64,000 nt of DNA, from contig JAIPGM010000005.1 of the NCBI GenBank assembly GCA_021735655.1, positions 1 to 64,000 on the forward strand. The letters are read 5' to 3'. The notes under the pieces were generated by a model that made no database searches, was not told where the DNA came from, and saw only the letters and a list, made by a program, of their open reading frames with translations. Below, in pieces: positions 142 to 25,136 of the stretch (the first letter of the stretch is position 1; the number at the start of each line of letters is the position of its first letter). Source of the stretch: Candidatus Omnitrophota bacterium. Its GTDB lineage: Bacteria > Omnitrophota > Gorgyraeia > Duberdicusellales > 4484-171. The position numbers and the translations under genes were made by a program.

Positions 142-1677
142 ATGGCTAGAGAATACTTAACCCCTACTGAAGCAGCTAAGATACTTAACCTATCACGCCA
201 AGCAGTAATTGAACGAATTAAGGCTGGTTCGCTTTATGCTGAACGGGTTGGTAAACGCTACATCATCCCCCGGAATCAACTCCCTTCTGAAAACGAGACT
301 TTAAACATCAAGAAACCAGCTGAAATCGGAATTTCTCTAAATAAAAAATCGCGAAAAGAGGCTATCAAAAAAGTCTTAGACAAAATAGCCAAAGATAACA
401 TCAGAACAATCCAACTTTGGTTTGTTGATATCTTAGGAATATTAAAGTGTGTCTCAATAACTCAAGGTGAATTAAAGGAAGCCCTTGATCACGGCAAAGG
501 CTTTGATGGCTCGTCAGTGACCGGATTCGCTGAAGCCCAAGAATCCGATATCCTCGCTTTGCCTGATCCCTATACTTTTAAAGTATTGCCTTGGACAGCA
601 AAAGACAATCCAATTGCCAGGATGTTTTGTGATATTTTAAATACTGACTCAACTCCCTATGCCGGAGACCCCCGTTATGTTCTAAAGCGATCTTTGGCCC
701 GAGCTGAGAAACTGGGGCTTACTTTCTTTGTCGGACCGGAGTTAGAATATTTTTATTTCAAATCCGACAAAAAACCAGAAGTAATCGACGAAGGGTCATA
801 TTTTGAACTAATCCCTAATGATCTCGCTGATGTCTTAAGAAACAAAACCGTACGAATACTAGAAGAAATGGGCATTGAAATGGAAGCAACCCACCATGAG
901 GTAGCCCCTTCCCAACATGAAATAGATCCCAAATATAACGACGCCCTTACCATGGCTGATAATGTAATGACCTGTAAATACGTAATCAAGGAAATTGCCC
1001 AACAAAACGGGGTTTATGCAACTTTTATGCCTAAACCTCTATTCGGTGAAAATGGCTCTGGCATGCATGTTCATCAATCACTTTTCAAAGGCGAAAAGAA
1101 CGCCTTTTTTGATAAAAAAGATAAACACCATTTGTCAGCTATAGCTAAAAATTTCATTGCCGGTGAGCTTAAGCATGCGCGAGAAATATCCTCGCTTACC
1201 GCTCAATGGGTAAATTCCTACAAAAGATTGGTCTCCGGTTATGAAGCACCAGTCTATGCCTCCTGGGCTCAAAAGAACCGTACTGCTCTATTAAGGGTTC
1301 CTCTCTATCGACCAGGCAACGAAAAGGCAACTCGAGTCGAATTGCGCTGTCCAGATCCGGCCTGTAACCCTTACCTTGCTTTTGCCGTAATGCTGGCAGC
1401 CGGACTAGAAGGAATCGAAAAAAAATACGAAATTCCTGCACCGGTTGAACCAAACATCTATCATATGGCCATGGAAGAAAGAGAAAGACGAGGATTGACT
1501 TCTCTACCGGGGAATCTCTTTGAAGCAATTATCGAAACAGAAAAAAGTAGCTTCGTAAAAGACACCCTCGGTGAACATATCTTCAATCGTTTCTTATTCA
1601 ATAAGAAGAAAGAATGGGAAGAATACCGTACTCAAATCACCGAACACGAAATTAAAAAGTATTTACCTTTACTTTAA
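142..1677 (+). CDS. Glutamine synthetase type I paralog with a ~70-aa N-terminal excisionase/MerR-like HTH extension.
   Basis: 511-aa ORF. Strong RBS (taggaggaaat) before the ATG. N-terminus LTPTEAAKILNLSRQAVIERIKAGSLYAERVGKRYIIP matches the excisionase-family HTH pattern. The rest is full-length GS-I (DGSS, MPKPLFGENGSGMHVHQSL, NPYLAFA motifs), about 60 % identical to the second glnA in this window. Confidence 0.85.
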   Translation: MAREYLTPTEAAKILNLSRQAVIERIKAGSLYAERVGKRYIIPRNQLPSENETLNIKKPAEIGISLNKKSRKEAIKKVLDKIAKDNIRTIQLWFVDILGILKCVSITQGELKEALDHGKGFDGSSVTGFAEAQESDILALPDPYTFKVLPWTAKDNPIARMFCDILNTDSTPYAGDPRYVLKRSLARAEKLGLTFFVGPELEYFYFKSDKKPEVIDEGSYFELIPNDLADVLRNKTVRILEEMGIEMEATHHEVAPSQHEIDPKYNDALTMADNVMTCKYVIKEIAQQNGVYATFMPKPLFGENGSGMHVHQSLFKGEKNAFFDKKDKHHLSAIAKNFIAGELKHAREISSLTAQWVNSYKRLVSGYEAPVYASWAQKNRTALLRVPLYRPGNEKATRVELRCPDPACNPYLAFAVMLAAGLEGIEKKYEIPAPVEPNIYHMAMEERERRGLTSLPGNLFEAIIETEKSSFVKDTLGEHIFNRFLFNKKKEWEEYRTQITEHEIKKYLPLL

Positions 1678-4436: not shown

Positions 4437-5812
4437 TACCTCCTCCTTTCTAAAGATCGTTTAGAAAACTTTTTAGGAATTTTTGTCGGATATTTACCAC
4501 TAAAACAAGCTGCGCAAAACTTATCTTTCTCCAAAGGCATAGATTTTAACATACCCTCAAGGCTTAGATACTCCAAACTGTCTAAACCGATAAATTTTTT
4601 AACCTCTTCAATCGTACGACTCGAAGCTATTAACTCTTTCTTTGTCGGAAAGTCTATCCCATAAAAACAAGGTGATATGATTGGCGGGCAACTTACCCGC
4701 ATGTGGATTTCTTTAGCCCCGAACTCCCGTAAAGTTCTCACTCGACTCTTGGAAGTTGTTCCTCGAACAATTGAATCCTCAATAACTACTATTCTTTTAC
4801 CTTTCAAAACATCTCTAATCGGATTAAGCTTCACTCTAACTCTAAAATCTCTAATATATTGAGACGGTTGAATGAAAGTTCGTCCAATGTAATGATTACG
4901 AATCATGCCAACCTCCAAGGGTATACCGCTTTCTTCAGCATAACCCATAGCTGCATAGTTTCCCGAATCAGGAACCGGCATCACTATATCAGCGTCTACC
5001 GAGCATTCTTGGGCAAGTTGTCTACCTAACTGTTTACGCGCTAGATAAACGTTGTTGCCAAAAATATTGCTATCCGGCCTGGCAAAATAAATATATTCAA
5101 AAATACATGACGCTTGATTGCTTTTAGCAAATGGCTTTACCGACTCCAAACTATCTTTTTTTATAAATACTACCTCACCCGGGGCAACATCTCTAACATA
5201 AGTAGCACCAATTAAATCTAAAGCACATGTTTCGCTAGCTAACACATAAACTCCATCAAGTTTTCCTAAGCAGAGTGGACGAAATCCCTGAGGATCTCTT
5301 GCTCCAACTAAAACATCATCCACCATTAATGTTAACGAATAGGCCCCAGCAAGTTTAGAAAGAACTTCAATAACTTTATCTTTAGTACTTTTATTGGACG
5401 ATTTAGCTAAAAGATGGACAATCACCTCTGAATCCATGGTGCTTTGGAAAATAGAACCCTTCTCTTCTAACTCCTTGCGCAAAACTGAAGTATTGGTGAG
5501 ATTCCCATTATGAGCAATAGCTATGTGGCCTTTTTTATGATTAACCAAGAAAGGTTGAATATTTTTAGAAATGCTTGATCCGGTCGTTGAATAACGGACA
5601 TGTCCGACAGCTACATCTCCCCGCAGAGCTTTTATTGCTCGTTCATCAAAAACATCACCAACCAAACCCATAGCCTTATGATATCTGACTCGCCGTCCGT
5701 CATAAGTAACCACCCCGCAGCTTTCTTCGCCACGATGCTGAAGTGCATACAATCCTAAATAAGCCAAACGCGAAGCATCTTTATGTCCAATAACACCAAA
5801 TATTCCACACAT
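4436..5812 (-). CDS. purF: Amidophosphoribosyltransferase.
   Basis: MCGIFGV N-terminal nucleophile Cys and PRTase domain. One-nucleotide overlap with pyrG. Confidence 0.95.
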
Positions 5813-5833
5813 TTTATTATTTCACTCCTTTTG

Positions 5834-8800
5834 TCAGCTAATATATTCCTGTATTGATTTAACTCCTAATTCACCCTTTAGCGCCGACTCTATACCATTA
5901 ACTGCTGCCTGGGCACCCTGAATCGTAGTGATACAAGGAATTCCATACATTACTGCCATGCTCCTTATCGATTTCATATCTGACTGACCTCTTTGGCCAG
6001 AAGGTGTATTTATTATTAATTTTATTTCGCCGCTCTTAATTAAATCCAATAATTGGCCATCGCCTTCGCTAATTTTTCCAACCTCTTTGGCTAAGATATC
6101 GTTGGAACGAAAAACTTTACAAGTGCCCCTGGTTGCCAATATTTTAAACTTCATATCCTTTAGCTTCTTAGCTATAAAAACAATACTTCTTTTATCGTCA
6201 TTTTTAACACTTATAAATATTTTTCCTTCTAACGGCAAAGCTTGACCAGCTGCTACCTGTGACTTATAAAAAGAAGCTCCGAAAGAACTATCTATACCCA
6301 TAACCTCACCGGTTGACTTCATTTCAGGGCCCAGGAGTATGTCTACTCCGGAAAACCTTGAGAATGGCAAAACCGACTCTTTTACCCCACAATGGAAAAT
6401 TTCCTTCTCCTGAGTAAAACCAATTTCATTCAATGTCTGACCAACCATAACCCTAGCAGCAATCTTAGCTAAGGCTACTCCAGTAACTTTACTCACGAAA
6501 GGTATTGTTCTTGAAGCCCGCGGATTTACTTCCAAAACATAAACGATATCGCCTTTTACGGCAAACTGGATATTAATTAACCCACAAACTTTCAATTCCT
6601 TTGCTAAAAGATGTGTATGTTTTCTTATTGTCCCTATAATTTCATCACTCAACGTGTGTGGCGGAATAACACAGGCTGAATCTCCAGAATGAACACCAGC
6701 CTCCTCAATATGCTCCATAATGCCACCGATAACCGTATCTTTTCCATCAGAAACAGCATCCACATCTACCTCCACTGCATCTTCCAAAAATTTATCAATC
6801 AATATCGGGCGGCCTCCCGAAATATTAACTGCCCCTTTGACAAATTGATCTAAAGATTTTTCATCATAAACTATCTTCATTGATCTTCCACCTAATACAT
6901 AAGAAGGTCTAACTAAAATTGGATAACCGATTTCTTTAGCTATCTTTCGGGCAGATTCTTTTGAAATAGCTGATCCGTTTGGTGGTTGGTTAAGGCCCAA
7001 ATCTTTTATTAATTCCGAAAACTTATCTCTATCCTCGGCTCGGTCAATAGAAGATACTGCTGTACCAATAATTGGCGCACCAGCCGCCTCCAATTTTTTA
7101 GCTAGATTAAGCGGAGTCTGACCGCCCAATTGCACTATTACCCCTTGAGGCTTCTCCTTTTCGATAATATTCATTACATCCTCAAAGGTCAATGGCTCAA
7201 AATAAAGCTTATCCGATGTATCGTAATCGGTTGAAACTGTCTCAGGATTCGAATTAACCATAATTGTTTCAAATCCAGCCTCCCTAAGCGCAAACGCAGC
7301 ATGACAACAGCAATAATCAAATTCTATGCCTTGCCCAATACGATTAGGCCCACCACCCAAAATCATTATTTTTTTGTTCTGAGAAACTCTAGTCTCATCT
7401 TCAGTCTCATAAGTAGAATAATAATATGGTGTATAGGCCTCGAACTCGGCCGCACAGGTATCAACCAACTTAAAAGTAGCGGTAACGCCTTTTTCTTTTC
7501 GTAACTTATTTATCGATAACTCATCCGACCCAATCAAATCAGCTATCTGGCGATCACTAAATCCGTACTGCTTGACCTTCTTTAAAAAAACAGCATTTAG
7601 ATCTTTATTGCTTTTAATTTCTTCCTCAAGCTCAACAATCTGCTTTATGTTATCGATAAACCAAAGGTCTATACCCGTCTGTTCAACAATATCATCCAAC
7701 TGCCAGCCTTTCTGAATAGCGTACTTAATATAAAATATTCTTGAGGCATTTGGCTCTTTTAACCTTAAGCTGATTTTCTCATCGGAAACTTCTTTATAAT
7801 CTGACTTGTTGTCCAGCCCGGTATGGCCAATCTCTAATCCTCGCAAACCTTTTTGAAGGGCTTCCTTAAAAGTTCGACCAATAGCCATAGTTTCTCCGAC
7901 TGACTTCATTGATATCCCCAAAATATCCTTTGCCTCGGGAAACTTTTCAAAAGTAAAACGGGGAATTTTAACTACACAGTAATCTATCACCGGCTCAAAT
8001 GAAGCCGGGGTTTCTTTAGTAATATCGTTTTTAATTTCATCCAGGGTATAGCCCACCGCTAGCTTAGCAGCAAACTTTGCTATCGGAAAACCAGTAGCCT
8101 TACTCGCTAGAGCTGAACTGCGTGAAACTCTCGGGTTCATCTCAATAACTACCATTCTTCCATCTTTAGGGTTGACCGCAAATTGAATATTTGAACCGCC
8201 GGTTTCAACGCCGATGGCTCGAATTATATCAATAGAGGCATCGCGCATTTTTTGATATTCTTTATCAGTTAAGGTTTGAGTCGGAGCCACAGTAATTGAG
8301 TCCCCGGTATGAATGCCCATCGGGTCAAAATTCTCTATCGAACAAACTATAACTACATTATCTTTTTTATCACGCATAACTTCTAATTCATACTCTTTCC
8401 AACCAACGATAGACTCCTCAATAAGGATTTCACTAATCATACTGTTATTTAAGCCTAAAGCGGCTATTTCTTCAAATTGTTTTTGGGTGGTAGCGATGCC
8501 TCCTCCAGTTCCACCAAGAGTAAAGCTGGGCCTAATTATCACTGGCAAGCCTATGGCTTTAACCGCTTCTTTTGCTTCTTTGATGTTGTAAGCTAAGGCA
8601 CTCTTAGGTAAATCCAGCCCAATCTCCTGCATTGTTTTTTTAAAAATTTCCCTGTCTTCAGCCTTTTTTATAGCTTCGCAATCGGCACCAATCATCTTAA
8701 CTCCATACCTGTCTAAAATTCCCTGTTCGAAAACCTTCATCGCCGTATTTAGCCCGGTTTGACCACCTAAGGTAGGTAATAATGCATCCGGAGACTCTTT

Positions 8801-9037: not shown

Positions 9038-10109
9038 AACTCTTTATCATTGAAATGAATTCATCGAATAAATATTCAGCATCATGCGGACCGGGCGAAC
9101 TTTCAGGATGAAATTGAACTGAAAATAACGGCAAGCTTTTGTGACGCAACCCTTCAAGGGTATTATCATTAAGGTTAACCTGCGTTACTTCTATTGATTC
9201 GCAATCTAAAGAATTAATGTCAACGCAAAACCCATGATTTTGTGCCGTTATTGAAACTTTACCGGTTTTTAAATCCTTAACTGGATGATTTCCACCATGA
9301 TGACCAAATTTAAGTTTGTAGGTTCTGCCACCCAAAGCCTGACCAAGTATCTGATGCCCAAAACAAATTCCAAAAAGCGGAACTTTACCGATCAGCCCCT
9401 TTACTGTATCAACAAGATAAGTAACGGCCGAAGGGTCTCCCGGACCATTAGAAAGTAACACTCCGTCAGGTTTAATTTTAAAAATTTCGTCTAAAGCGAT
9501 ACTTGCCGGCACAACCGTTACCTTGCAATTCCTCTCACTTAATTTCCTTAAGCTGTTCAGTTTTAAACCGCAGTCAATAACAACTATCTTAAATTTTCCC
9601 TTATCACTCCAAACCCAAGGCTCCTTACAGGTAACCTCTTTTACCAAATCAATACCGATTAACCCTTTTGATTCTCTAGCCCGCTTAACTAAAATTTGGT
9701 CACTACAATTTTCAGTTGAAATCACCGCTTTCATCGCTCCCTTAAGTCTTATTTGTCGCGTAAGGGCTCTAGTATCAAAACCTTCAATGCCAATTACATC
9801 ATTCTCAGTCAAATAATCCGGAAGGCTCTGGGTAGCACGCCAATTACTATAAACCCTGCTGCATTCGCGCACTAAAAACCCTTCCAAAAATGGCTTCTTT
9901 GATTCAACATCACCAGGATTAATTCCATAATTACCAATTAAAGGATAAGTCATTAAAACAATTTGCCCTTTATAGGAAGGATCGGTAATTATCTCCTGAT
10001 AACCACTTAAGCTGGTATTGAAAACTACTTCACCACTCCTTTCCCCCGAACCAGAGAAGCAATCTCCTTGGAAAATAATTCCATTTTCAAGAGCTATTCG
10101 AGCTTTCAC
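9030..10109 (-). CDS. carA: Carbamoyl-phosphate synthase small (glutaminase) subunit.
   Basis: CPSase_sm N-domain plus GATase1 (GICFGHQ, HPE). Eight-nucleotide overlap with carB. Confidence 0.95.
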
Positions 10110-12694
10110 GACGACGTCTCCTTTTTACTAAAAAAACATATAACCCTTTGCGAAGTAACATCGGAGATTATCCTCAAATCTTCGCTGCTTAGGTCATAGA
10201 CACTAATAATATCTTTATACTTAGCAGAACCAGGTACTAATTTAGCGAGCAAATTATCATGCTCAATCAACCAAGACTTATTAAATATAACTCCCTTATT
10301 TTCAGGAAAAAGAGCAATATAAAATATGCTAGTTTCGACTAAATCCTGAAAGAAATGGGTTCCAAAAGATAATTCCGGCATAAGGTTTCCAGCTGAAAAT
10401 GCAACCTCAGCTAAGACTGCTATATTATTTATCTCGGCAAATTTTACTGGAACGCCCAAGGATGGAGTTGTTGTGCCCCATCTTCCCGGTCCGATAAGAA
10501 GAGTATAGAACTGCTCCCGATCAGTCAGATTCCGATTGAGCCGCCCGACAACCCGAGCGATTTCATACTTATCTGATAAAACTAATTTATTGTAACCTTC
10601 CGGATCAATATAGATAATTCTTTCTACTTTATGAGAAATATTTCCGCCGAAAAAATACCCTTGAGACTCAAAAAATATATCAGTTTTAAGTATTTTCTTA
10701 GGCATCCTGACCCTTTTACCGATACCAACTGTTTGTAATGGTCTACACTGTAATACATTTATTTTAAATAAATCATCCTCAGTAAAATTAACGGTAAATT
10801 CTAATTCTACTGGATAATTATAACTTTTCTCAAGTAATTCCAGTATCTTCTTAAAAGAATTGGCTAATTTACTCTTGCTAAAAGCCTTATCTAAAGTTAA
10901 TATCCAGTAATCCTTATCTTTTAAATTTCTACCGCGCATCATTTCTGTAGCTTCATAATCTTTAACCGCCATGCGGTTTAAATCGTTATAAATATTACTA
11001 CGAGCCAAATCATTAAATGAAATGGTTTCAAAACTATTATTTTTTGTATTTATAACATCGACCTCGTGCTGTGAGAATTTTCGCAAATCGTCTTTTTCGG
11101 CATACGGCCTTCGCAAAGGATCATCTAAAGCAACCATCCTCGGATAATCACCTTCAACCCGATTAACCGCTCTAGTGCCCAGCCCAAAAACTACCCTAAG
11201 CATTCCCGCTTTAGGGTCAATATCTTTATTCCAAACATGGGTATTGTGTGAAACTCCAACCCCAGCTAGATCAGGGAAAAAACAACAATCATGATGGGCT
11301 CCAGAAACTCGTTGTATTAAAAGCGCCATCTGCTCATCCAACTTGTCCAAACCACGCTGCTTCCGGTAGACTAAAGCATCCTCGCTCATGGTGCTGGCAT
11401 AAATTTTTCTTACTGCCTCGGCAAACATAAGATATCTTTGCTCGGGGCTGCCCTGGTTAGCCAAAAATATACTCTCATACTTACCAGCAAAAGCATTACC
11501 AAATCCGTCCTCAAGCAATGAACTTGACCGTATGATAATCGGTGAAGAGCCAAAATATTCAATAATTTGTTGAAAATGTTCTCTGATCTCCTCAGAAAAA
11601 GTTCCATAAAGCATCTTATCTTTAAGAATCTTCGCAATCGAAAAATAACCTTCTTCGCCTCTTTGCTGCATACGTAATTTCCACCAGCGGTTTTGCACAA
11701 TATAAGAATAAAATATATCTGAACCAATATAAAACGAATCGTGTGGTTCTGAAAGTTTAGGCCAATCCGGCAATTTTTCCGAAAGCATCTTACGGGCCAA
11801 AAGCATACCAGCGCTTTTACCACCGATAAAACCAGTTCCAATTAAGCGAGATTTTATATCAATTAACTCAGCCAGTGATAAATTATTCACTGCCAACGAC
11901 ATAATTTTTTCATTTTTGCTTATCATCAAGCTACAAATTTTCTTAACAATATCGGATATTTTTTCCTTAGCCGGCCGGACCTTAATTAGTTCGTCAGCTT
12001 CAAGAAATAAACGATCCCAATAATCAAGATTTCGCTTTGCGCTTTCAAGGCCCTTTTCGCTAATATGAGAAAGTATTTCTACCGCATTAATGCTGTCGGC
12101 AATTGGTGTCCAGCGATCATCTTCTCTTTGATGCGGAAGAAACATTGTCGGTGTATACCGATTCCAAACTTTCAACGGATGGATATAAAAACTTCCCCGA
12201 CAGCGATAGACATCCATAAGCAGTTGTGTGGTTTCTCGTATTTGAGCTATCGACTTAAAAGAATGACTATTACGTAATATCGAAAAATAAGTTAAAGTTT
12301 TAAGTTCGTAAAGATAAGGACAAGTTACCATAAAAAAATTACCAATCATTAAATCACTGGCCCAAGCCGAGAGCAACTCTGAAAGGCAATCAAAAACATA
12401 ATAAGCGCCCTGGCCTTCTTTAGTAATAATTTGATTTAATTCGGTAGCAAACGACTCAAAACCAATCGAAGGTTTAAGATCATATCGCTTTATCTTAGCT
12501 GAAGATTCTAGTAACTCTTTATGTGAAGCAAAACGGATATAGATAACCTTCTTATCCTCAAGCAAAGCCTGATCAACAAAAGGCTTAACCAGCTCAACGT
12601 AGTCTTCTATATCATCAATTTGCCAAACAACATTGTCACCAGCTCGTAACCCGGTAATTACTTTATCCAAACCTTTTATTCCCGTACTTATCAT
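10106..12694 (-). CDS. Large protein of unknown function: degenerate KaiC/RecA-like N-domain plus a PEP-synthase/PPDK_N-type ATP-grasp domain.
   Basis: 862 aa. The N-terminus GIKGLDKVITGLRAGDNVVWQID resembles KaiC/RecA domain starts but has no Walker A motif. The central region has PpsA/PPDK_N signatures (IIRSSSLLEDGFGNAFAGKYESI; ...FKINVLQCRPLQ). The C-terminus has GPGRWGTTTP, a swivel-like stretch without the catalytic His. ATGA overlap with carA and an 11-nt gap after gltD place it in the same operon. Confidence 0.55.
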   Translation of the reverse strand: MISTGIKGLDKVITGLRAGDNVVWQIDDIEDYVELVKPFVDQALLEDKKVIYIRFASHKELLESSAKIKRYDLKPSIGFESFATELNQIITKEGQGAYYVFDCLSELLSAWASDLMIGNFFMVTCPYLYELKTLTYFSILRNSHSFKSIAQIRETTQLLMDVYRCRGSFYIHPLKVWNRYTPTMFLPHQREDDRWTPIADSINAVEILSHISEKGLESAKRNLDYWDRLFLEADELIKVRPAKEKISDIVKKICSLMISKNEKIMSLAVNNLSLAELIDIKSRLIGTGFIGGKSAGMLLARKMLSEKLPDWPKLSEPHDSFYIGSDIFYSYIVQNRWWKLRMQQRGEEGYFSIAKILKDKMLYGTFSEEIREHFQQIIEYFGSSPIIIRSSSLLEDGFGNAFAGKYESIFLANQGSPEQRYLMFAEAVRKIYASTMSEDALVYRKQRGLDKLDEQMALLIQRVSGAHHDCCFFPDLAGVGVSHNTHVWNKDIDPKAGMLRVVFGLGTRAVNRVEGDYPRMVALDDPLRRPYAEKDDLRKFSQHEVDVINTKNNSFETISFNDLARSNIYNDLNRMAVKDYEATEMMRGRNLKDKDYWILTLDKAFSKSKLANSFKKILELLEKSYNYPVELEFTVNFTEDDLFKINVLQCRPLQTVGIGKRVRMPKKILKTDIFFESQGYFFGGNISHKVERIIYIDPEGYNKLVLSDKYEIARVVGRLNRNLTDREQFYTLLIGPGRWGTTTPSLGVPVKFAEINNIAVLAEVAFSAGNLMPELSFGTHFFQDLVETSIFYIALFPENKGVIFNKSWLIEHDNLLAKLVPGSAKYKDIISVYDLSSEDLRIISDVTSQRVICFFSKKETSS

Positions 12695-19695: not shown

Positions 19696-21027
19696 TTACA
19701 AAATTGAAAGATACTTATCCAATTCATATTGAGGAACTTGGATTTTATAATTATCCCACTCCTTCTTCTTTAACTCCACAAACCTGGGAAAAATATGTTC
19801 ACCGAGCACCTTTTTAACCAATTCACTCTCTTCGGTTATTGAAACTGCATGTCCCAAGCTATCCGGAAGAGTCTCAATGCCTTGATCTTTTCGCTCGGAA
19901 TCGCTAAGATGATACAAATTTTTCTCCATCGGATTAGGCACCTTATAGCCTTTTTCAATGCCTTCAAGCCCGGCATGAAGCATTGCTGCAAAGGTAAGAT
20001 AAGGGTTACATGCTGGATCGGCAGCCCGAAATTCACAACGAGTAGCCTTTTCTTGACCAGGATGGTACAAAGGAACTCTAACCAAGGCGCTTCGATTCCT
20101 ACGACTCCAAGCAATATAAACCGGAGCCTCATAACCAGGAACCAACCGCTTGTAAGAATTAGTAGTTTGAGCAAATATTGAACAAATTTCCTTGGAATGC
20201 TTAAGAAGTCCGGCTATATAGCTGTGACCAACCCCAGAAAGAAAATCTTCAGCCTTAGGATCAAAAAAGGCGTTCTTTTCGCCTTTAAACAGTGATTGAT
20301 GAACATGCATACCAGAACCATTTTCGCCAAATAAGGGTTTAGGCATAAAAGTAGCGTAAACTCCGAATTTGCTAGCGATTTCTTTTACTACCACTCGATA
20401 AGTTATTACATCATCAGCCATCTTTAATGCATCTTGATAACGCATGTCTACTTCATGTTGAGACGGTGCTACTTCATGATGTGAATACTCAACATGAATT
20501 CCCATTTTCTCTAAAGCCAACACTGTTTCTCTTCGTAGATCACTAGCAACATCAAGAGTGGTTAGATCAAAATAACCCCCTTTATCCAAAGTTTCAGTAT
20601 TATTTTCGCTTTTGAAATAAAAGAACTCTAGTTCGGGACCTAGATAGAAATGGTCAAATCCCATTTTTTTAGCCCGCTCCAAGGCTCTTTTTAAAACATA
20701 GCGCGGATCGCCAACATATGGCGTACGATCAGGATTAAGCACGTCACAAATCATTCGAGCAACTGCCTTTTCCCTCGGCCGCCAAGGCAATATTGCAAAA
20801 GTTTCCGGATCAGGCATAGCAATCATATCTGATTCTTCAATGTCCTGATAACCGGTAATCGAAGAGCCATCAAAACCCATACCATTTTCTAAAGCTCCCT
20901 CTAATTCATTATCGGTTATCGAAAAACTCTTTACCTGCCCTAGAATATCAGTAAACCATAAACGAATAAACTTAACATCATTCTCCTTAACCAGTTTTAA
21001 AATATCCTGCTTTGTTTTCTTAGCCAT
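19696..21027 (-). CDS. glnA: Glutamine synthetase type I (I-alpha-like, 443 aa).
   Basis: Canonical GS-I motifs (DGSS, KPLFGENGSGMHVHQSL, NPYLTFAAML). RBS cggagg before the ATG. Confidence 0.95.
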   Translation of the reverse strand: MAKKTKQDILKLVKENDVKFIRLWFTDILGQVKSFSITDNELEGALENGMGFDGSSITGYQDIEESDMIAMPDPETFAILPWRPREKAVARMICDVLNPDRTPYVGDPRYVLKRALERAKKMGFDHFYLGPELEFFYFKSENNTETLDKGGYFDLTTLDVASDLRRETVLALEKMGIHVEYSHHEVAPSQHEVDMRYQDALKMADDVITYRVVVKEIASKFGVYATFMPKPLFGENGSGMHVHQSLFKGEKNAFFDPKAEDFLSGVGHSYIAGLLKHSKEICSIFAQTTNSYKRLVPGYEAPVYIAWSRRNRSALVRVPLYHPGQEKATRCEFRAADPACNPYLTFAAMLHAGLEGIEKGYKVPNPMEKNLYHLSDSERKDQGIETLPDSLGHAVSITEESELVKKVLGEHIFPRFVELKKKEWDNYKIQVPQYELDKYLSIL

Positions 21028-21052
21028 CTTACACCTCCGTTTTGTTTATGCT

Positions 21053-21098
21053 CCTAAAAATAAAAATGGTGTCTTAAGCCCTAAGGCTTTAAAACACC
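21053..21098 (-). terminator. Intrinsic-terminator-like hairpin plus U-run between glnB and glnA, ending ~25 nt before the glnA start codon.
   Basis: Minus strand: GGUGUUUUAAAGCCUUAGGGCUUAAGACACC followed by AUUUUUAUUUUU, then RBS GGAGG and ATG. Two further hairpins sit upstream (21119-21133, 21140-21155). Confidence 0.55.
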
Positions 21099-21228
21099 AT
21101 TGTTTTGAAAGCTTTTTTGCACAAACTTTGTGCTTTTTTGGCTGAAATTTCAGCCCTCAATATATATAAGTAAAAAAATGGGTCTTTTGGTAACCTTTTT
21201 TTTAAAATTTTTTCCTGGCCCATAAAAT

Positions 21229-21570
21229 TTACCCTATAGCATCACTTCCTCGCTCTCCGGTCCTTATTCTAATGCACTCCGGTAAATCTAATACAAATAT
21301 CTTGCCATCACCGATTGTACCGGTTTTAGCCCCTTTAATTATCGCTTTAACCGTAGGTTCGACAAAATCCTTATTTACGGCTATTTCAAGACGCACTTTT
21401 TTTAAAAGATTAACCTCATGGATGACGCCCCTATAGGTTTCGGTGTAGCCTTTCTGCTGACCACAACCTAAAGCATTAGAAACAGTCATCTTGTGAACAT
21501 CGGCATCAAAGAGAGCCTGTTTAACATCTGATAATTTATGCGGCTGAATCATTGCAATTACTAACTTCAT
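21229..21570 (-). CDS. glnB: PII nitrogen regulatory protein.
   Basis: 113 aa GlnB/GlnK fold ([13 protein letters not shown]..., T-loop [12 protein letters not shown]). His replaces the Tyr51 uridylylation site. 14-nt gap after amt. Confidence 0.9.
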
Positions 21571-21584
21571 GGTTTACCTCCCTG

Positions 21585-22931
21585 TTATTTAGTAGTAAAT
21601 ATTTCAAATCCAGAATAAGTCTCCATGCCATGCTGGGTGATATCTAAACCCTTTAACTCTTCTTCCCTGGATACTCTCAAGCCGATAAACCGGTCAATCA
21701 GCTTAAACACGGTAAACATCACAACTGACACAAAACTGACGACGGCTAAAACACCCAAAGCCTGAACGCCTAACTGAGCAATACCACCGCCATGAATCAA
21801 ACCATCGCGGGCTAAACCCAATGATTTATGGCCAAAAATACCAACAGCTAAAGTACCCCAAACACCATTCATCATATGTACCGGAACCGCTCCCACCGGA
21901 TCATCAACTCTAATCTTATCAAGAAAAACAGTGCCGACAACCACAATAATACCGCCGATAGCTCCAATAATCATAGCCTCTAAAGGAGTTACAAAGGCAC
22001 AAGGCGCAGTTATCGCCACCAAACCGGCTAAAGCTCCGTTCATAGTCATAGTTAAATCCGGCTTGCCAAACTTTTTCCAGTTAAAAAACATAGCCGATAA
22101 AGCTCCCGCAACTGCAGCCATATTAGTAGTAACAGCAACATGAGCTATTTGACTGCCATCGCCAACACTCAAAGTTGAACCGGGATTAAAACCAAACCAA
22201 GCAAACCATAAAATTAAGGTCCCCAACGATGCTAAAGTCATAGAATGCCCCTCAATAGCATTGGCTGATCCATCTTTATTGAACTTACCAATACGCGGCC
22301 TCAATACAATTGTCCCCATAAGGGCTGCTGTGCCGCCTACAGCGTGAACTACGCTCGATCCGGCAAAATCGGCAAAATTTAAATTACTGAGCCAACCGCC
22401 GCCCCAAATCCAATGGCCAATTATCGGATAAACTGTGGCTGAAATTAAAAATGAATATATAAGATACGCTTTAAACTTCATTCTTTCGGCTACACCACCA
22501 GCAACTATAGTTGCTGCGGCTCCGCAGAATACAGCGTGAAAAAACCAAGCCGCATAGAGAGGCAAATGTCCATCATGAGCGGCATTAACCATAAACCAAC
22601 CCTTAAAGCCCATAAAACCATTTCCGGCGCCAAACATTATGGCATAACCAAATATGAAAAATCCCACAGAAGCCATACAAAAATCTAAAAAGTTATTCAT
22701 CAACACATTACAAGTATTTTTAGCCCTAATTAACCCCGCTTCCAACATACCAAATCCAGCCTGCATGATAAAAACCATGAAGGCTGCAATCATAACCCAA
22801 AGAGTATCAATTCCAGCTACCGTAGCGTAAGCCGTATTCTCATCGGCAAAAACCGACCCTAAAGCCACGGAACTAATTACTCCTAAAAATAATACCGCCG
22901 AAACTAACTTTTTAATTTTTTTTATCTTCAT
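21585..22931 (-). CDS. amt: Ammonium transporter (Amt family), copy 1.
   Basis: 448 aa with signal peptide and 11 TM helices. Amt signatures; 60-70 % similar to copy 2. Confidence 0.92.
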   Translation of the reverse strand: MKIKKIKKLVSAVLFLGVISSVALGSVFADENTAYATVAGIDTLWVMIAAFMVFIMQAGFGMLEAGLIRAKNTCNVLMNNFLDFCMASVGFFIFGYAIMFGAGNGFMGFKGWFMVNAAHDGHLPLYAAWFFHAVFCGAAATIVAGGVAERMKFKAYLIYSFLISATVYPIIGHWIWGGGWLSNLNFADFAGSSVVHAVGGTAALMGTIVLRPRIGKFNKDGSANAIEGHSMTLASLGTLILWFAWFGFNPGSTLSVGDGSQIAHVAVTTNMAAVAGALSAMFFNWKKFGKPDLTMTMNGALAGLVAITAPCAFVTPLEAMIIGAIGGIIVVVGTVFLDKIRVDDPVGAVPVHMMNGVWGTLAVGIFGHKSLGLARDGLIHGGGIAQLGVQALGVLAVVSFVSVVMFTVFKLIDRFIGLRVSREEELKGLDITQHGMETYSGFEIFTTK

Positions 22932-24344: not shown

Positions 24345-25136
24345 TTAGAATCCGTAGCTAACTTCAAAACCACCCCATAATTCTTCATCACCATTATTAA
24401 TCTCTTCTTCATGATTAATCGTATAGTGCAAACTAGGAGTTAGACTGAAACCACCCAAAGCATAAGAAGTTGATAATGAAAGTTCAGTCGCATAAAGCGA
24501 GCTAGGTTCAAGATCGGCAACTCCGTCATTGCCCCAGTTAACTACTCCTAAGGCAAGAGTTTGTCCTTCTTGAATTAAAGAATGCTTCAGAAGCGGGAGT
24601 TCAGCATCAAAACCCCAAGAATAATACCAACCCTCATCAGGACCACCGGATTTGGCTTGAAAATCATAGCCGGCAAAAAAGCTTGCTGAAACGTCAATTG
24701 GAAGAAAAGGTATTTTATTCAAGGTTCCGGAAAGCCAAGACTCAGAAACATCAGCCGTGCTGGCTGTATTAGGAAAGTCAAAGTAAGTATATCCGGTTGA
24801 AAAATTAAATTGATCATCGAATAGATCTCGAGAAAAAGTTACAGTATAATCAAGCTCTTCGCCGTCTTCATGCCCACTATTCATCGGAAATGATCCCCAG
24901 ACATTGAATGAAAGGTCAACCCCATCGATAAGCCCAGGAAATCCAATATCAATACTCGGCTGGTGTGCTCCATCATTATCGCTATAGAGATCTTGCCCAC
25001 GCCAGATATATCTAGAAACATAAGTATCAGTTACGGTAACCTCAACCGGCTGGCCAGCAAACTCAAAAGCATAAATATCCCCTAAAAAAATAACACTAAA
25101 TATTATATTCATTAACCAAACTGATATTTTTTTCAT
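24345..25136 (-). CDS. Putative outer-membrane beta-barrel protein (porin-like), first gene of the amt operon.
   Basis: Signal peptide, alternating amphipathic beta-strand pattern, aromatic-rich, C-terminal ...SYGF. 15-nt gap to amt. Confidence 0.6.
   Translation of the reverse strand: MKKISVWLMNIIFSVIFLGDIYAFEFAGQPVEVTVTDTYVSRYIWRGQDLYSDNDGAHQPSIDIGFPGLIDGVDLSFNVWGSFPMNSGHEDGEELDYTVTFSRDLFDDQFNFSTGYTYFDFPNTASTADVSESWLSGTLNKIPFLPIDVSASFFAGYDFQAKSGGPDEGWYYSWGFDAELPLLKHSLIQEGQTLALGVVNWGNDGVADLEPSSLYATELSLSTSYALGGFSLTPSLHYTINHEEEINNGDEELWGGFEVSYGF

Follow-up and report, generated by a model that had tools for sequence, protein, structure and literature searches.

A putative ANTAR-type transcription attenuator upstream of the glutamine synthetase gene in an uncultured Omnitrophota bacterium

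What controls glutamine synthetase (GS) in an uncultured Omnitrophota bacterium whose glnA gene is preceded by a structured spacer of 201 nucleotides (nt)? This spacer lies on the minus strand between a PII gene and glnA in Candidatus Omnitrophota bacterium (assembly GCA_021735655.1, contig JAIPGM010000005.1, positions 1-64,000 of the forward strand; this whole stretch of 64,000 nt is referred to as the window). A preliminary description saw in it three hairpins ending in a terminator and proposed that GS expression depends on read-through from the PII gene, there called glnB. We interpret the spacer as an ANTAR-type transcription attenuator that controls glnA, and assign this interpretation a probability of about 0.78. 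A published ANTAR target is a pair of short hairpins, each loop having A as its first and G as its fourth base (A1/G4), of which the second overlaps a terminator (PMC3369931; criteria in PMC8164766).

Two hairpins and a terminator in the glnA leader

The three hairpins and the U-tract that had been described are all present, position for position and with the minus-strand sequence exactly as quoted; the distance from the end of the U-tract to the glnA start codon is 28 nt instead of the 25 nt given for it. Taken as a sequence of 213 nt, the spacer folds into these three hairpins with a minimum free energy of -54.9 kcal/mol, compared with -39.5 +/- 4.4 kcal/mol in 200 dinucleotide shuffles, none of which was as stable (0/200; z = -3.5). 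Hairpin 3 is a real intrinsic terminator, with a stable, G+C-containing stem-loop of at least 13 base pairs (bp) and a U-tract directly 3' of it, and folds on its own at -20.0 kcal/mol. A simple terminator scanner missed it because of a one-base bulge in the stem.

Hairpin 2, hereafter P1, is the first of two ANTAR-type hairpins, while the second, P2, had gone unnoticed (Table 1). With a 4-bp core stem in P1, a 5-bp stem in P2 and A1 together with G4 in each loop (AAAGUUU and AAUGGU), the pair has the stem sizes and loop positions of ANTAR targets. The 12-nt linker between them fits both published ranges, 5-12 nt in the leaders of eut genes (PMC3369931) and 2-25 nt under the ANTAR-target criteria (PMC8164766).

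The spacer module is a real, conserved regulatory RNA. For comparison, we used the 260 nt upstream of glnA in about 45 related Omnitrophota loci, a set of 80 loci fetched by a GlnA query, which includes Actinomycetota, Methanobacteria, Nitrospirota and Margulisiibacteriota, and a covariance model of P1 and P2 (R1) built from 28 seed sequences. Read 5' to 3', the conserved module comprises GGTTACCAAAA-N7-TTTTTTACTT, a variable stretch of 13-45 nt, GCAC-N7-GUGC, a non-conserved linker, AAC-AARGRY-GUU, a strong terminator and the ribosome-binding site (RBS). It is also present before glnA genes whose upstream gene is not glnB (L003, L006, L016, L021, L029, L031 and L034), and the terminator is kept at its glnA-proximal position in about 30 related genomes. 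From the end of the module to the ATG, most loci have 51-77 nt, a stretch made up of terminator and RBS that holds no conserved promoter. In L009, L018, L026, L034 and L036 the terminator lies further from the ATG (95-313 nt), and some relatives have tandem ANTAR-type attenuators before the regulated gene (L010, ~1084-1226; L150, ~5740-5870).

In the GlnA-query loci, R1 matched 34 sites at E < 1e-3 and 64 sites at the looser E < 1; every one of them is on the coding strand apart from a weak minus-strand match at E < 1 (L001, 37-80, 15.6 bits). A single weak site fell outside Omnitrophota-type loci (L057, Margulisiibacteriota; 17.9 bits, E = 0.17), and no match was obtained in the Actinomycetota, Methanobacteria and Nitrospirota loci of this query. 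Sites that were not part of the seed (L021, L014, L009, L022 and L010) were recovered with E-values from 8e-11 to 3e-4, and the glnA leader of the window scored 53.9 bits. Genes downstream of the matches encode GlnA, AmtB, porin-like and ECF-like sigma proteins. An Rfam search of positions 20500-21800 with cmscan at E <= 10 returned chance-level matches only (best 21.6 bits against a gathering score of 141); a glutamine riboswitch, T-box or similar element was rejected, as no Rfam family matches the spacer at this permissive threshold.

Across both hairpins, 92.8% of alignment cells are paired, against 25-62% with the partners slid, and shuffles give a covariation score of 0.136 +/- 0.012 where 0.205 is observed (0/500 reach this value), although these counts come from related sequences and a model-fitted alignment and are therefore biased towards structure. 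Within P2, 95.6% of cells are paired and one pair splits into G-C (16) and A-U (13). The P1 stem is mostly invariant in glnA leaders, with GCAC/GTGC half-sites near-invariant in 30 of 33 glnA-type leaders, and its variants in the wider family retain pairing (ACAC/GUGU 6, GCGC/GCGC 3, GUAC/GUAC 1 and the wobble form GCAC/GUGU 5). Both loop G columns are invariant in the 28-sequence seed, and the P1 loop G and its closing C-G pair also in the 34 matches; A1 is found in 49 of 57 P1 loops and 37 of 44 P2 loops, the latter with the consensus AARGRY. P1 loops have 7 nt in 45 of 57 cases and 6 nt in 12 (for example AUAGAU or AGAGUA), the longer form keeping the A1 and G4 positions and adding its extra base on the 3' side. 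The distance from P1 core to P2 core is mostly 12-15 nt across the family.

P2 and the terminator exclude each other. The first 11 nt of the terminator 5' arm are the P2 loop and the P2 3' arm; of 33 modules, 31 have the first base of the terminator stem at P2 loop position 0 or 1, so that the two structures cannot coexist. In line with this overlap, one base of the P2 3' arm changes together with its P2 partner and its terminator partner alike (three-way covariation: G/C/G 13, A/U/A 12, other 8). P2 alone folds at -2 kcal/mol in the window and at 0 to -7 kcal/mol across modules, compared with -20 and -13 to -24 kcal/mol for the terminator. With P2 weak and the terminator strong, the predicted default state is therefore termination.

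Hairpin 1 takes no part in this conservation. It is stable in the window (-9.6 kcal/mol, z = -5.1), but, of 43 related leaders, only 5 form a hairpin of -5 kcal/mol or lower between the promoter-like motif described below and P1, and in 32 there is practically no hairpin at this place. Conservation in orthologous spacers, on which the preliminary description had staked its proposal, thus holds for hairpins 2 and 3, and covariation for P1, P2 and the terminator; hairpin 1 is lineage-specific, and the three-hairpin unit does not stand as such. Nor do we count hairpin 1 as an additional ANTAR hairpin, because G4 is missing from its loop (AAUU or AAAUUU) and relatives do not conserve it.

A further element of the preliminary description was an anti-terminator formed by pairing of A-tracts with the U-tract. 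The A6 tracts exist (21139-21134 and 21118-21113), but related leaders lack them and have linkers such as AGCGGGCAUAUU or AGGAUUAGCUUGG, so this pairing is unsupported; the conserved, covarying alternative that sequesters the terminator 5' arm is P2. Leader-peptide attenuation was likewise discarded: the sole leader reading frame, AUG-GUG-UUU-UAA, lies inside P2, and its AUG is missing in relatives, which have AAGGGU or AAAGGC there.

Regulator, promoter motif and sibling leaders

An ANTAR protein is encoded in the same genome, about 9 kb from the glnA leader and within the same nitrogen cluster. It combines an ANTAR domain with a GAF part whose nearest counterparts are the GAF domains of PtsP and NifA, and no second ANTAR domain was found among the open reading frames of the window. 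In L002, L025 and L040, R1 modules directly follow the gene for an orthologue with 50-54% identity. We further examined 80 metagenome loci with GAF-ANTAR orthologues of 61-80% identity. R1 gave 17 weak matches on these ANTAR-anchored loci because it is specific to glnA-type P1, and a generic motif scan with controls was used instead. A strict scan for two A1/G4 hexaloop hairpins with an overlapping terminator, no more than 230 nt downstream of the ANTAR gene, was positive at 11 of 59 metagenome loci and at 0 of 59 in reverse-complement, shuffled and in-gene controls; since two positives (L084 and L091) resemble coding sequence, 9 is the safer count. Most likely, it is the GAF-ANTAR protein of the window that would override the glnA terminator by binding P1 and P2, and the signal perceived through its GAF domain would probably be 2-oxoglutarate or glutamine. 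The GAF-ANTAR architecture is listed as abundant (PMC12591593) and was without a characterised example when PMC3369931 was written; none was found in the literature searched.

Where would the leader transcript begin? The spacer contains a promoter-like motif, GGTTACC-N14-TTTACTT, and we consider it most likely that glnA has its own promoter here. In the window, GGTTACC-N14-TTTAC is found at two places (21195-21170 and 25260-25235), where 0.04 occurrences would be expected. Counting the window and the 80 loci together, the glnA strand has 56 copies of the motif and the opposite strand has 1; a locus typically has two, which keep a constant position relative to the glnA and amtB/porin leaders downstream of them. 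Many of the loci L001-L045 also show a purine-rich patch (GTAGA, AGAG or GGTAGAAG) 5-25 nt past TTTACTT, at 21160-21156 in the window, which may mark the transcription start region. Allowing up to 3 mismatches, no sigma-54 consensus was found on the glnA strand of 21028-21228 (window-wide, 241 matches compared with 208 +/- 13 from shuffles), and a sigma-70 consensus scan gave no match on the minus strand of the spacer and a chance-level count overall.

These observations divide the earlier proposal that GS expression relies on regulated read-through from glnB. Because the conserved terminator sits between any promoter and the glnA RBS, glnA expression does need regulated read-through. Dependence on glnB, on the other hand, is not supported, given the motif within the spacer and the loci with other upstream neighbours: read-through from the PII gene is possible, as no terminator was seen between its stop codon and the motif, but it is not required. 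The suggested control point for PII:GS stoichiometry finds no support; the amtB-glnK operon is preceded by a separate leader with a terminator of this type.

Three sibling leaders occur in the window. That of the ECF-like sigma gene is a fully canonical dual hexaloop, while the amtB-operon leader and the FNR-like/GltD-like leader each have one clear A1/G4 hexaloop hairpin; R1 scored 12.7 bits at the amtB-operon leader, on the P2 part only. Leaders of the sigma gene and of ANTAR-adjacent operons follow TTGACA-N16-17-TGnTATACT promoters ending 8-12 nt before P1, and the FNR-like/GltD-like leader of the window stands behind TTGACA-N16-TATATT. Judged from these motifs, there appear to be two promoter classes, the GGTTACC type and the TTGACA/TGnTATACT type. 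The ECF-like sigma gene is located upstream of glnA in 22 loci, and in the window its stop codon is overlapped by a GGTTACC motif (25260-25233). Possibly, this sigma factor reads the GGTTACC-N14-TTTACTT promoters, and the arrangement suggests a cascade from the ANTAR protein via the sigma factor to the nitrogen operons.

The glnA leader would work like an ANTAR attenuator and belongs to a family that includes canonical members; the following course of events is predicted. Transcription would most likely start just downstream of the GGTTACC-N14-TTTACTT motif (21195-21168), and the nascent leader would form P1 first. By default, the strong terminator and its U-tract would form next and halt RNA polymerase 28 nt before the glnA start codon. 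Under nitrogen limitation, the GAF-ANTAR protein would bind the A1/G4 loop of P1 and then that of P2, stabilising the weak P2 so that the first 11 nt of the terminator 5' arm are occupied, the terminator is blocked and polymerase enters glnA. The same device would operate at the amtB-amtB-glnK operon, the ECF-like sigma gene and the glutamate-synthase-like operon of the window.

All of these features belong to a nitrogen-assimilation cluster on the minus strand, which runs from the GAF-ANTAR gene through the FNR-like and GltD-like pair, gdhA, the ECF-like sigma gene, the porin-like gene, two amtB genes, the PII gene, glnA, a class-I amidotransferase gene and a 73-amino-acid (aa) helix-turn-helix (HTH) gene to gltB and gltD (Table 1). 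The PII gene is of glnK type, since two amtB genes precede it, and GlnA is 85-88% identical to GlnA from Candidatus Omnitrophota metagenome-assembled genomes (MAGs). The HTH gene lies just after glnA and the amidotransferase gene and overlaps the start of gltB. A second glutamine synthetase of 511 aa (142-1677, plus strand) has an N-terminal HTH_17 domain (excisionase/MerR-like) fused to the GS N- and C-domains. The first protein of the amtB-amtB-glnK operon (263 aa; 24345-25136, minus strand) has a signal-peptide-like N-terminus and no Pfam or NCBIfam match, and is possibly an outer-membrane channel; its orthologue in L001 (62-65% identity) is likewise found behind an ANTAR-type leader. Between gltD and carA, in the nitrogen/nucleotide cluster, lies the gene for an 862-aa protein (10106-12694, minus strand) with a PPDK_N (PEP-utilising, ATP-binding) domain and an N-terminus that, judged by eye only, is KaiC/RecA-like.

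Table 1 Features of the glnA leader and of the surrounding nitrogen cluster
Feature	Position	Strand	Description
Promoter-like motif	21195-21168	minus	GGTTACCAAAAGACCCATTTTTTTACTT (GGTTACC-N14-TTTACTT); probable start of the glnA leader transcript
Hairpin 1	21155-21140	minus	GGCUGAAAUUUCAGCC; near probable leader 5' end; not conserved
Hairpin 2 (P1)	21133-21119	minus	GCACAAAGUUUGUGC; GCAC-AAAGUUU-GUGC; 4-bp core stem, 7-nt loop, A1, G4; first ANTAR-type hairpin
P1-P2 linker	21118-21107	minus	AAAAAAGCUUUC; 12 nt; sequence not conserved in relatives
P2	21106-21091	minus	AAAAC-AAUGGU-GUUUU; 5-bp stem, hexaloop with A1 and G4; antiterminator hairpin
Hairpin 3	21098-21068	minus	GGUGUUUUAAAGCC-UUAG-GGCUUAAGACACC; bulged, 13 bp; followed by AUUUUUAUUUUU to 21056
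Intrinsic terminator	21101-21065	minus	stem AAUGGUGUUUUAAAGCC / GGCUUAAGACACCAUU; U-tract AUUUUUAUUUUU to 21056
Shine-Dalgarno sequence of glnA	21038-21033	minus	GGAGGU
glnA	21027-19696	minus	regulated gene; ATG at 21027; 443 aa; Gln-synt_C 8.5e-130
PII gene	21570-21229	minus	Pfam P-II 1.8e-27
GAF-ANTAR gene	30400-29699	minus	candidate antiterminator; 233 aa; Pfam GAF_2 1.1e-19, ANTAR 1.3e-19
FNR-like/GltD-like operon leader	29656-29604	minus	downstream of ANTAR gene; GAGAC-AAGGAC-GUCUU (29656-29641) overlapping terminator 29648-29604
Sigma-gene leader	25845-25779	minus	UAAC-AAAGAA-GUUA (25845-25832); GGC-AAAGAA-GCC (25826-25815); overlapping terminator 25818-25779
ECF-like sigma gene	25758-25246	minus	170 aa, divergent; TIGR02937 sigma70-ECF full length, 37 bits, below cutoff 42.9; GerE HTH 1.9e-8
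Porin-like/amtB/amtB/glnK leader	25260-25156	minus	motif 25260-25233; hairpin AACAC-AAAGGC-GUGUU (25208-25193); 19-bp terminator 25203-25156
Fis/NtrC-DBD-like HTH gene	18897-18676	minus	stand-alone, 73 aa; HTH_8 1e-13; NtrC C-terminus 5.7e-10

Alternative explanations and counter-evidence

The near-invariance of the GCAC/GTGC half-sites is unusual for an RNA stem and could instead reflect, as the strongest of the rival explanations has it, a palindromic DNA operator, GCAC-N7-GTGC (duplex GCACAAAGTTTGTGC), bound by a protein resembling Fis or the DNA-binding domain (DBD) of NtrC. Such a protein would act as a roadblock or initiation regulator, alone or in addition to attenuation. A homologue of the Fis/NtrC-DBD-like gene follows glnA in 36 of 80 loci, and the GCAC-N7-GTGC core has the spacing of NtrC sites. 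We nevertheless consider this explanation improbable, and two observations led us to reject it as the main reading of hairpin 2. First, the invariance of the central G is confined to the sense strand, something that an ANTAR loop requires and a symmetric dimer site has no need of. Second, the stem variants argue for RNA: the wobble form GCAC/GUGU breaks DNA symmetry while keeping RNA pairing, and the others are compensatory. Moreover, loops of 6 or 7 nt would shift the spacing of the half-sites, and P1, always on the coding strand and part of the transcribed leader, precedes P2 by a constant distance. An NtrC enhancer would be accompanied by a sigma-54 promoter; the palindrome is present, but no -24 GG/-12 GC match with 3 or fewer mismatches was found on the glnA strand of 21028-21228.

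A promoter-like motif followed by a strong terminator would also fit an independent small RNA (sRNA) gene of about 105 nt, whose product titrates the ANTAR protein as a decoy like EutX/Rli55 while glnA is transcribed from elsewhere. There is precedent for sRNAs that sequester ANTAR proteins (PMC8934654), terminated transcripts of about 100 nt with two ANTAR-type loops are expected from the leader anyway, and in the five loci named above the terminator lies 95-313 nt from the ATG. We regard a decoy as very unlikely, however, given that the short interval between module and ATG in most loci holds terminator and RBS without a conserved promoter, that the module is always co-oriented with and directly upstream of a nitrogen gene, and that the overlap of P2 with the terminator is a hallmark of attenuation in cis. 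The model of the preliminary description, in which GS is made solely by read-through of the glnB operon and the A-tracts pair with the U-tract, has in its favour that the A6 tracts exist and that some read-through is possible, no obvious terminator being seen between the glnB stop codon and the leader. Its probability is slight: the A-tracts are conserved in none of the related leaders, a 6-bp A-U pairing is too weak against a terminator of -20 kcal/mol, the module occurs with other upstream genes, and a conserved promoter-like motif lies inside the spacer. It is hardly credible, finally, that the hairpins are the plain 3' end of the amtB-glnK operon, a terminator with stabilising stem-loops, and that glnA is expressed constitutively from an unrecognised promoter. 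Hairpin 3 is indeed a good terminator downstream of glnB, but P1, P2 and the terminator are kept before glnA where the neighbour is not glnB, only 28 nt that hold the RBS are left between U-tract and ATG, and the same architecture is found at the 5' ends of three other operons of the window.

Several points nevertheless weigh against the interpretation as an ANTAR attenuator. The loops are not both hexanucleotides: P2 has 6 nt (AAUGGU) and P1 has 7 (AAAGUUU), therefore strict ANTAR-target membership fails for P1 of the glnA leader. A possible A7-U13 pair in P1 (A-U 27, G-U 1, unpaired 4, no compensation) would even leave a pentaloop with G at position 3. The P1 stem GCAC/GUGC is far more conserved than is usual for ANTAR stems, and this could indicate a different or additional ligand. 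A GAF-ANTAR gene is visible in only 3 of the 80 GlnA-anchored loci, because their flanks are short, and the bias of the covariation counts noted above has to be borne in mind. The organism is uncultured, and every functional step of the ANTAR model is a prediction.

Relation to known systems and meaning for the Omnitrophota

The mechanism as such is known: work of 2010-2012 described nitrogen genes under ANTAR control and predicted sites in front of genes for glutamine synthetase. Such sites were predicted before PII, ammonium-transporter and glutamine/glutamate synthase genes in other phyla (PMC3369931). New is the setting, with Omnitrophota as host, a GAF-ANTAR regulator, a 7-nt P1 loop and an associated ECF-like sigma factor with its own promoter motif. 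For Omnitrophota, the literature searched yielded no account of regulation by ANTAR proteins.

The glnA leader shares with the targets of EutV (eut, Enterococcus), NasR (nasF) and AmiR (ami) two short hairpins on a short linker, A1/G4 loops, a conserved closing C-G pair and a second hairpin within the terminator 5' arm (PMC3369931, PMC8934654, PMC8164766). As in these systems, the ANTAR protein is encoded nearby and the targets belong to nitrogen metabolism. In the crystal structure of EutV with RNA, the flipped-out G4 makes the sole base-specific contact, and a single loop constitutes the minimal site (PMC8934654). Unlike those targets, the glnA leader has a 7-nt P1 loop, which is 6 nt in 12 of 57 relatives, and a P1 stem of conserved sequence. 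The candidate regulator also differs from the REC-, NIT- and AmiR_N-ANTAR proteins in being a one-component GAF-ANTAR protein.

A close parallel is GnfK/GnfR of Geobacter sulfurreducens, in which an ANTAR regulator relieves premature terminators in nitrogen-gene leaders; the GnfR site CAGGCAANGGCGCC (GGC-AANGGC-GCC) precedes terminators before glnK, amtB and nif genes (PMC2995071) and shares its loop with AAC-AARGGC-GUU, the consensus of P2 in the present family. Both systems are layered, with a dedicated initiation system on top of antitermination. GnfR, however, is a phosphorylated response regulator combined with sigma-54 and GnfL/GnfM at initiation, whereas the protein described here has a GAF sensor domain, the initiation layer apparently consists of an ECF-like sigma factor with GGTTACC-N14-TTTACTT, and no sigma-54 promoter was seen in the spacer. 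The glutamine riboswitch (glnA RNA motif) and other cis-acting RNAs of GS genes resemble the glnA leader in coupling nitrogen status to GS expression through a structured 5' leader. In contrast to them, it has no Rfam match and consists of two minimal hairpins without a ligand pocket, so that sensing would be performed by a protein.

With its invariant G4, the 7-nt P1 loop probes how strict the hexaloop rule for ANTAR recognition is, and the glnA-type leaders supply a natural target set for a GAF-ANTAR protein. The ANTAR interpretation offers a concrete, testable model in which an uncultured, small-genome phylum would govern its glutamine synthetase, ammonium transporters and PII through protein-dependent antitermination and not through the textbook regulators of initiation. 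The two promoter classes could, in addition, help to annotate transcription units in Omnitrophota MAGs. Extending the picture to the whole nitrogen-assimilation regulon is tentative, and we hold it with more doubt than confidence: a two-layer circuit, from GAF-ANTAR protein to ECF-like sigma factor to GGTTACC promoters, may run this regulon in Omnitrophota in place of NtrBC/sigma-54 or GlnR. If this is true, a one-component GAF-ANTAR protein would itself be the sensor of a nitrogen metabolite and would relieve the terminator in the sigma-gene leader, itself transcribed from a TTGACA/TGnTATACT promoter. The sigma factor would then drive the glnA and amtB-glnK promoters, whose leaders would be gated again by the same ANTAR protein, forming a coherent feed-forward loop, and the conserved GCAC stem with its 7-nt P1 loop would represent an extended ANTAR recognition code.

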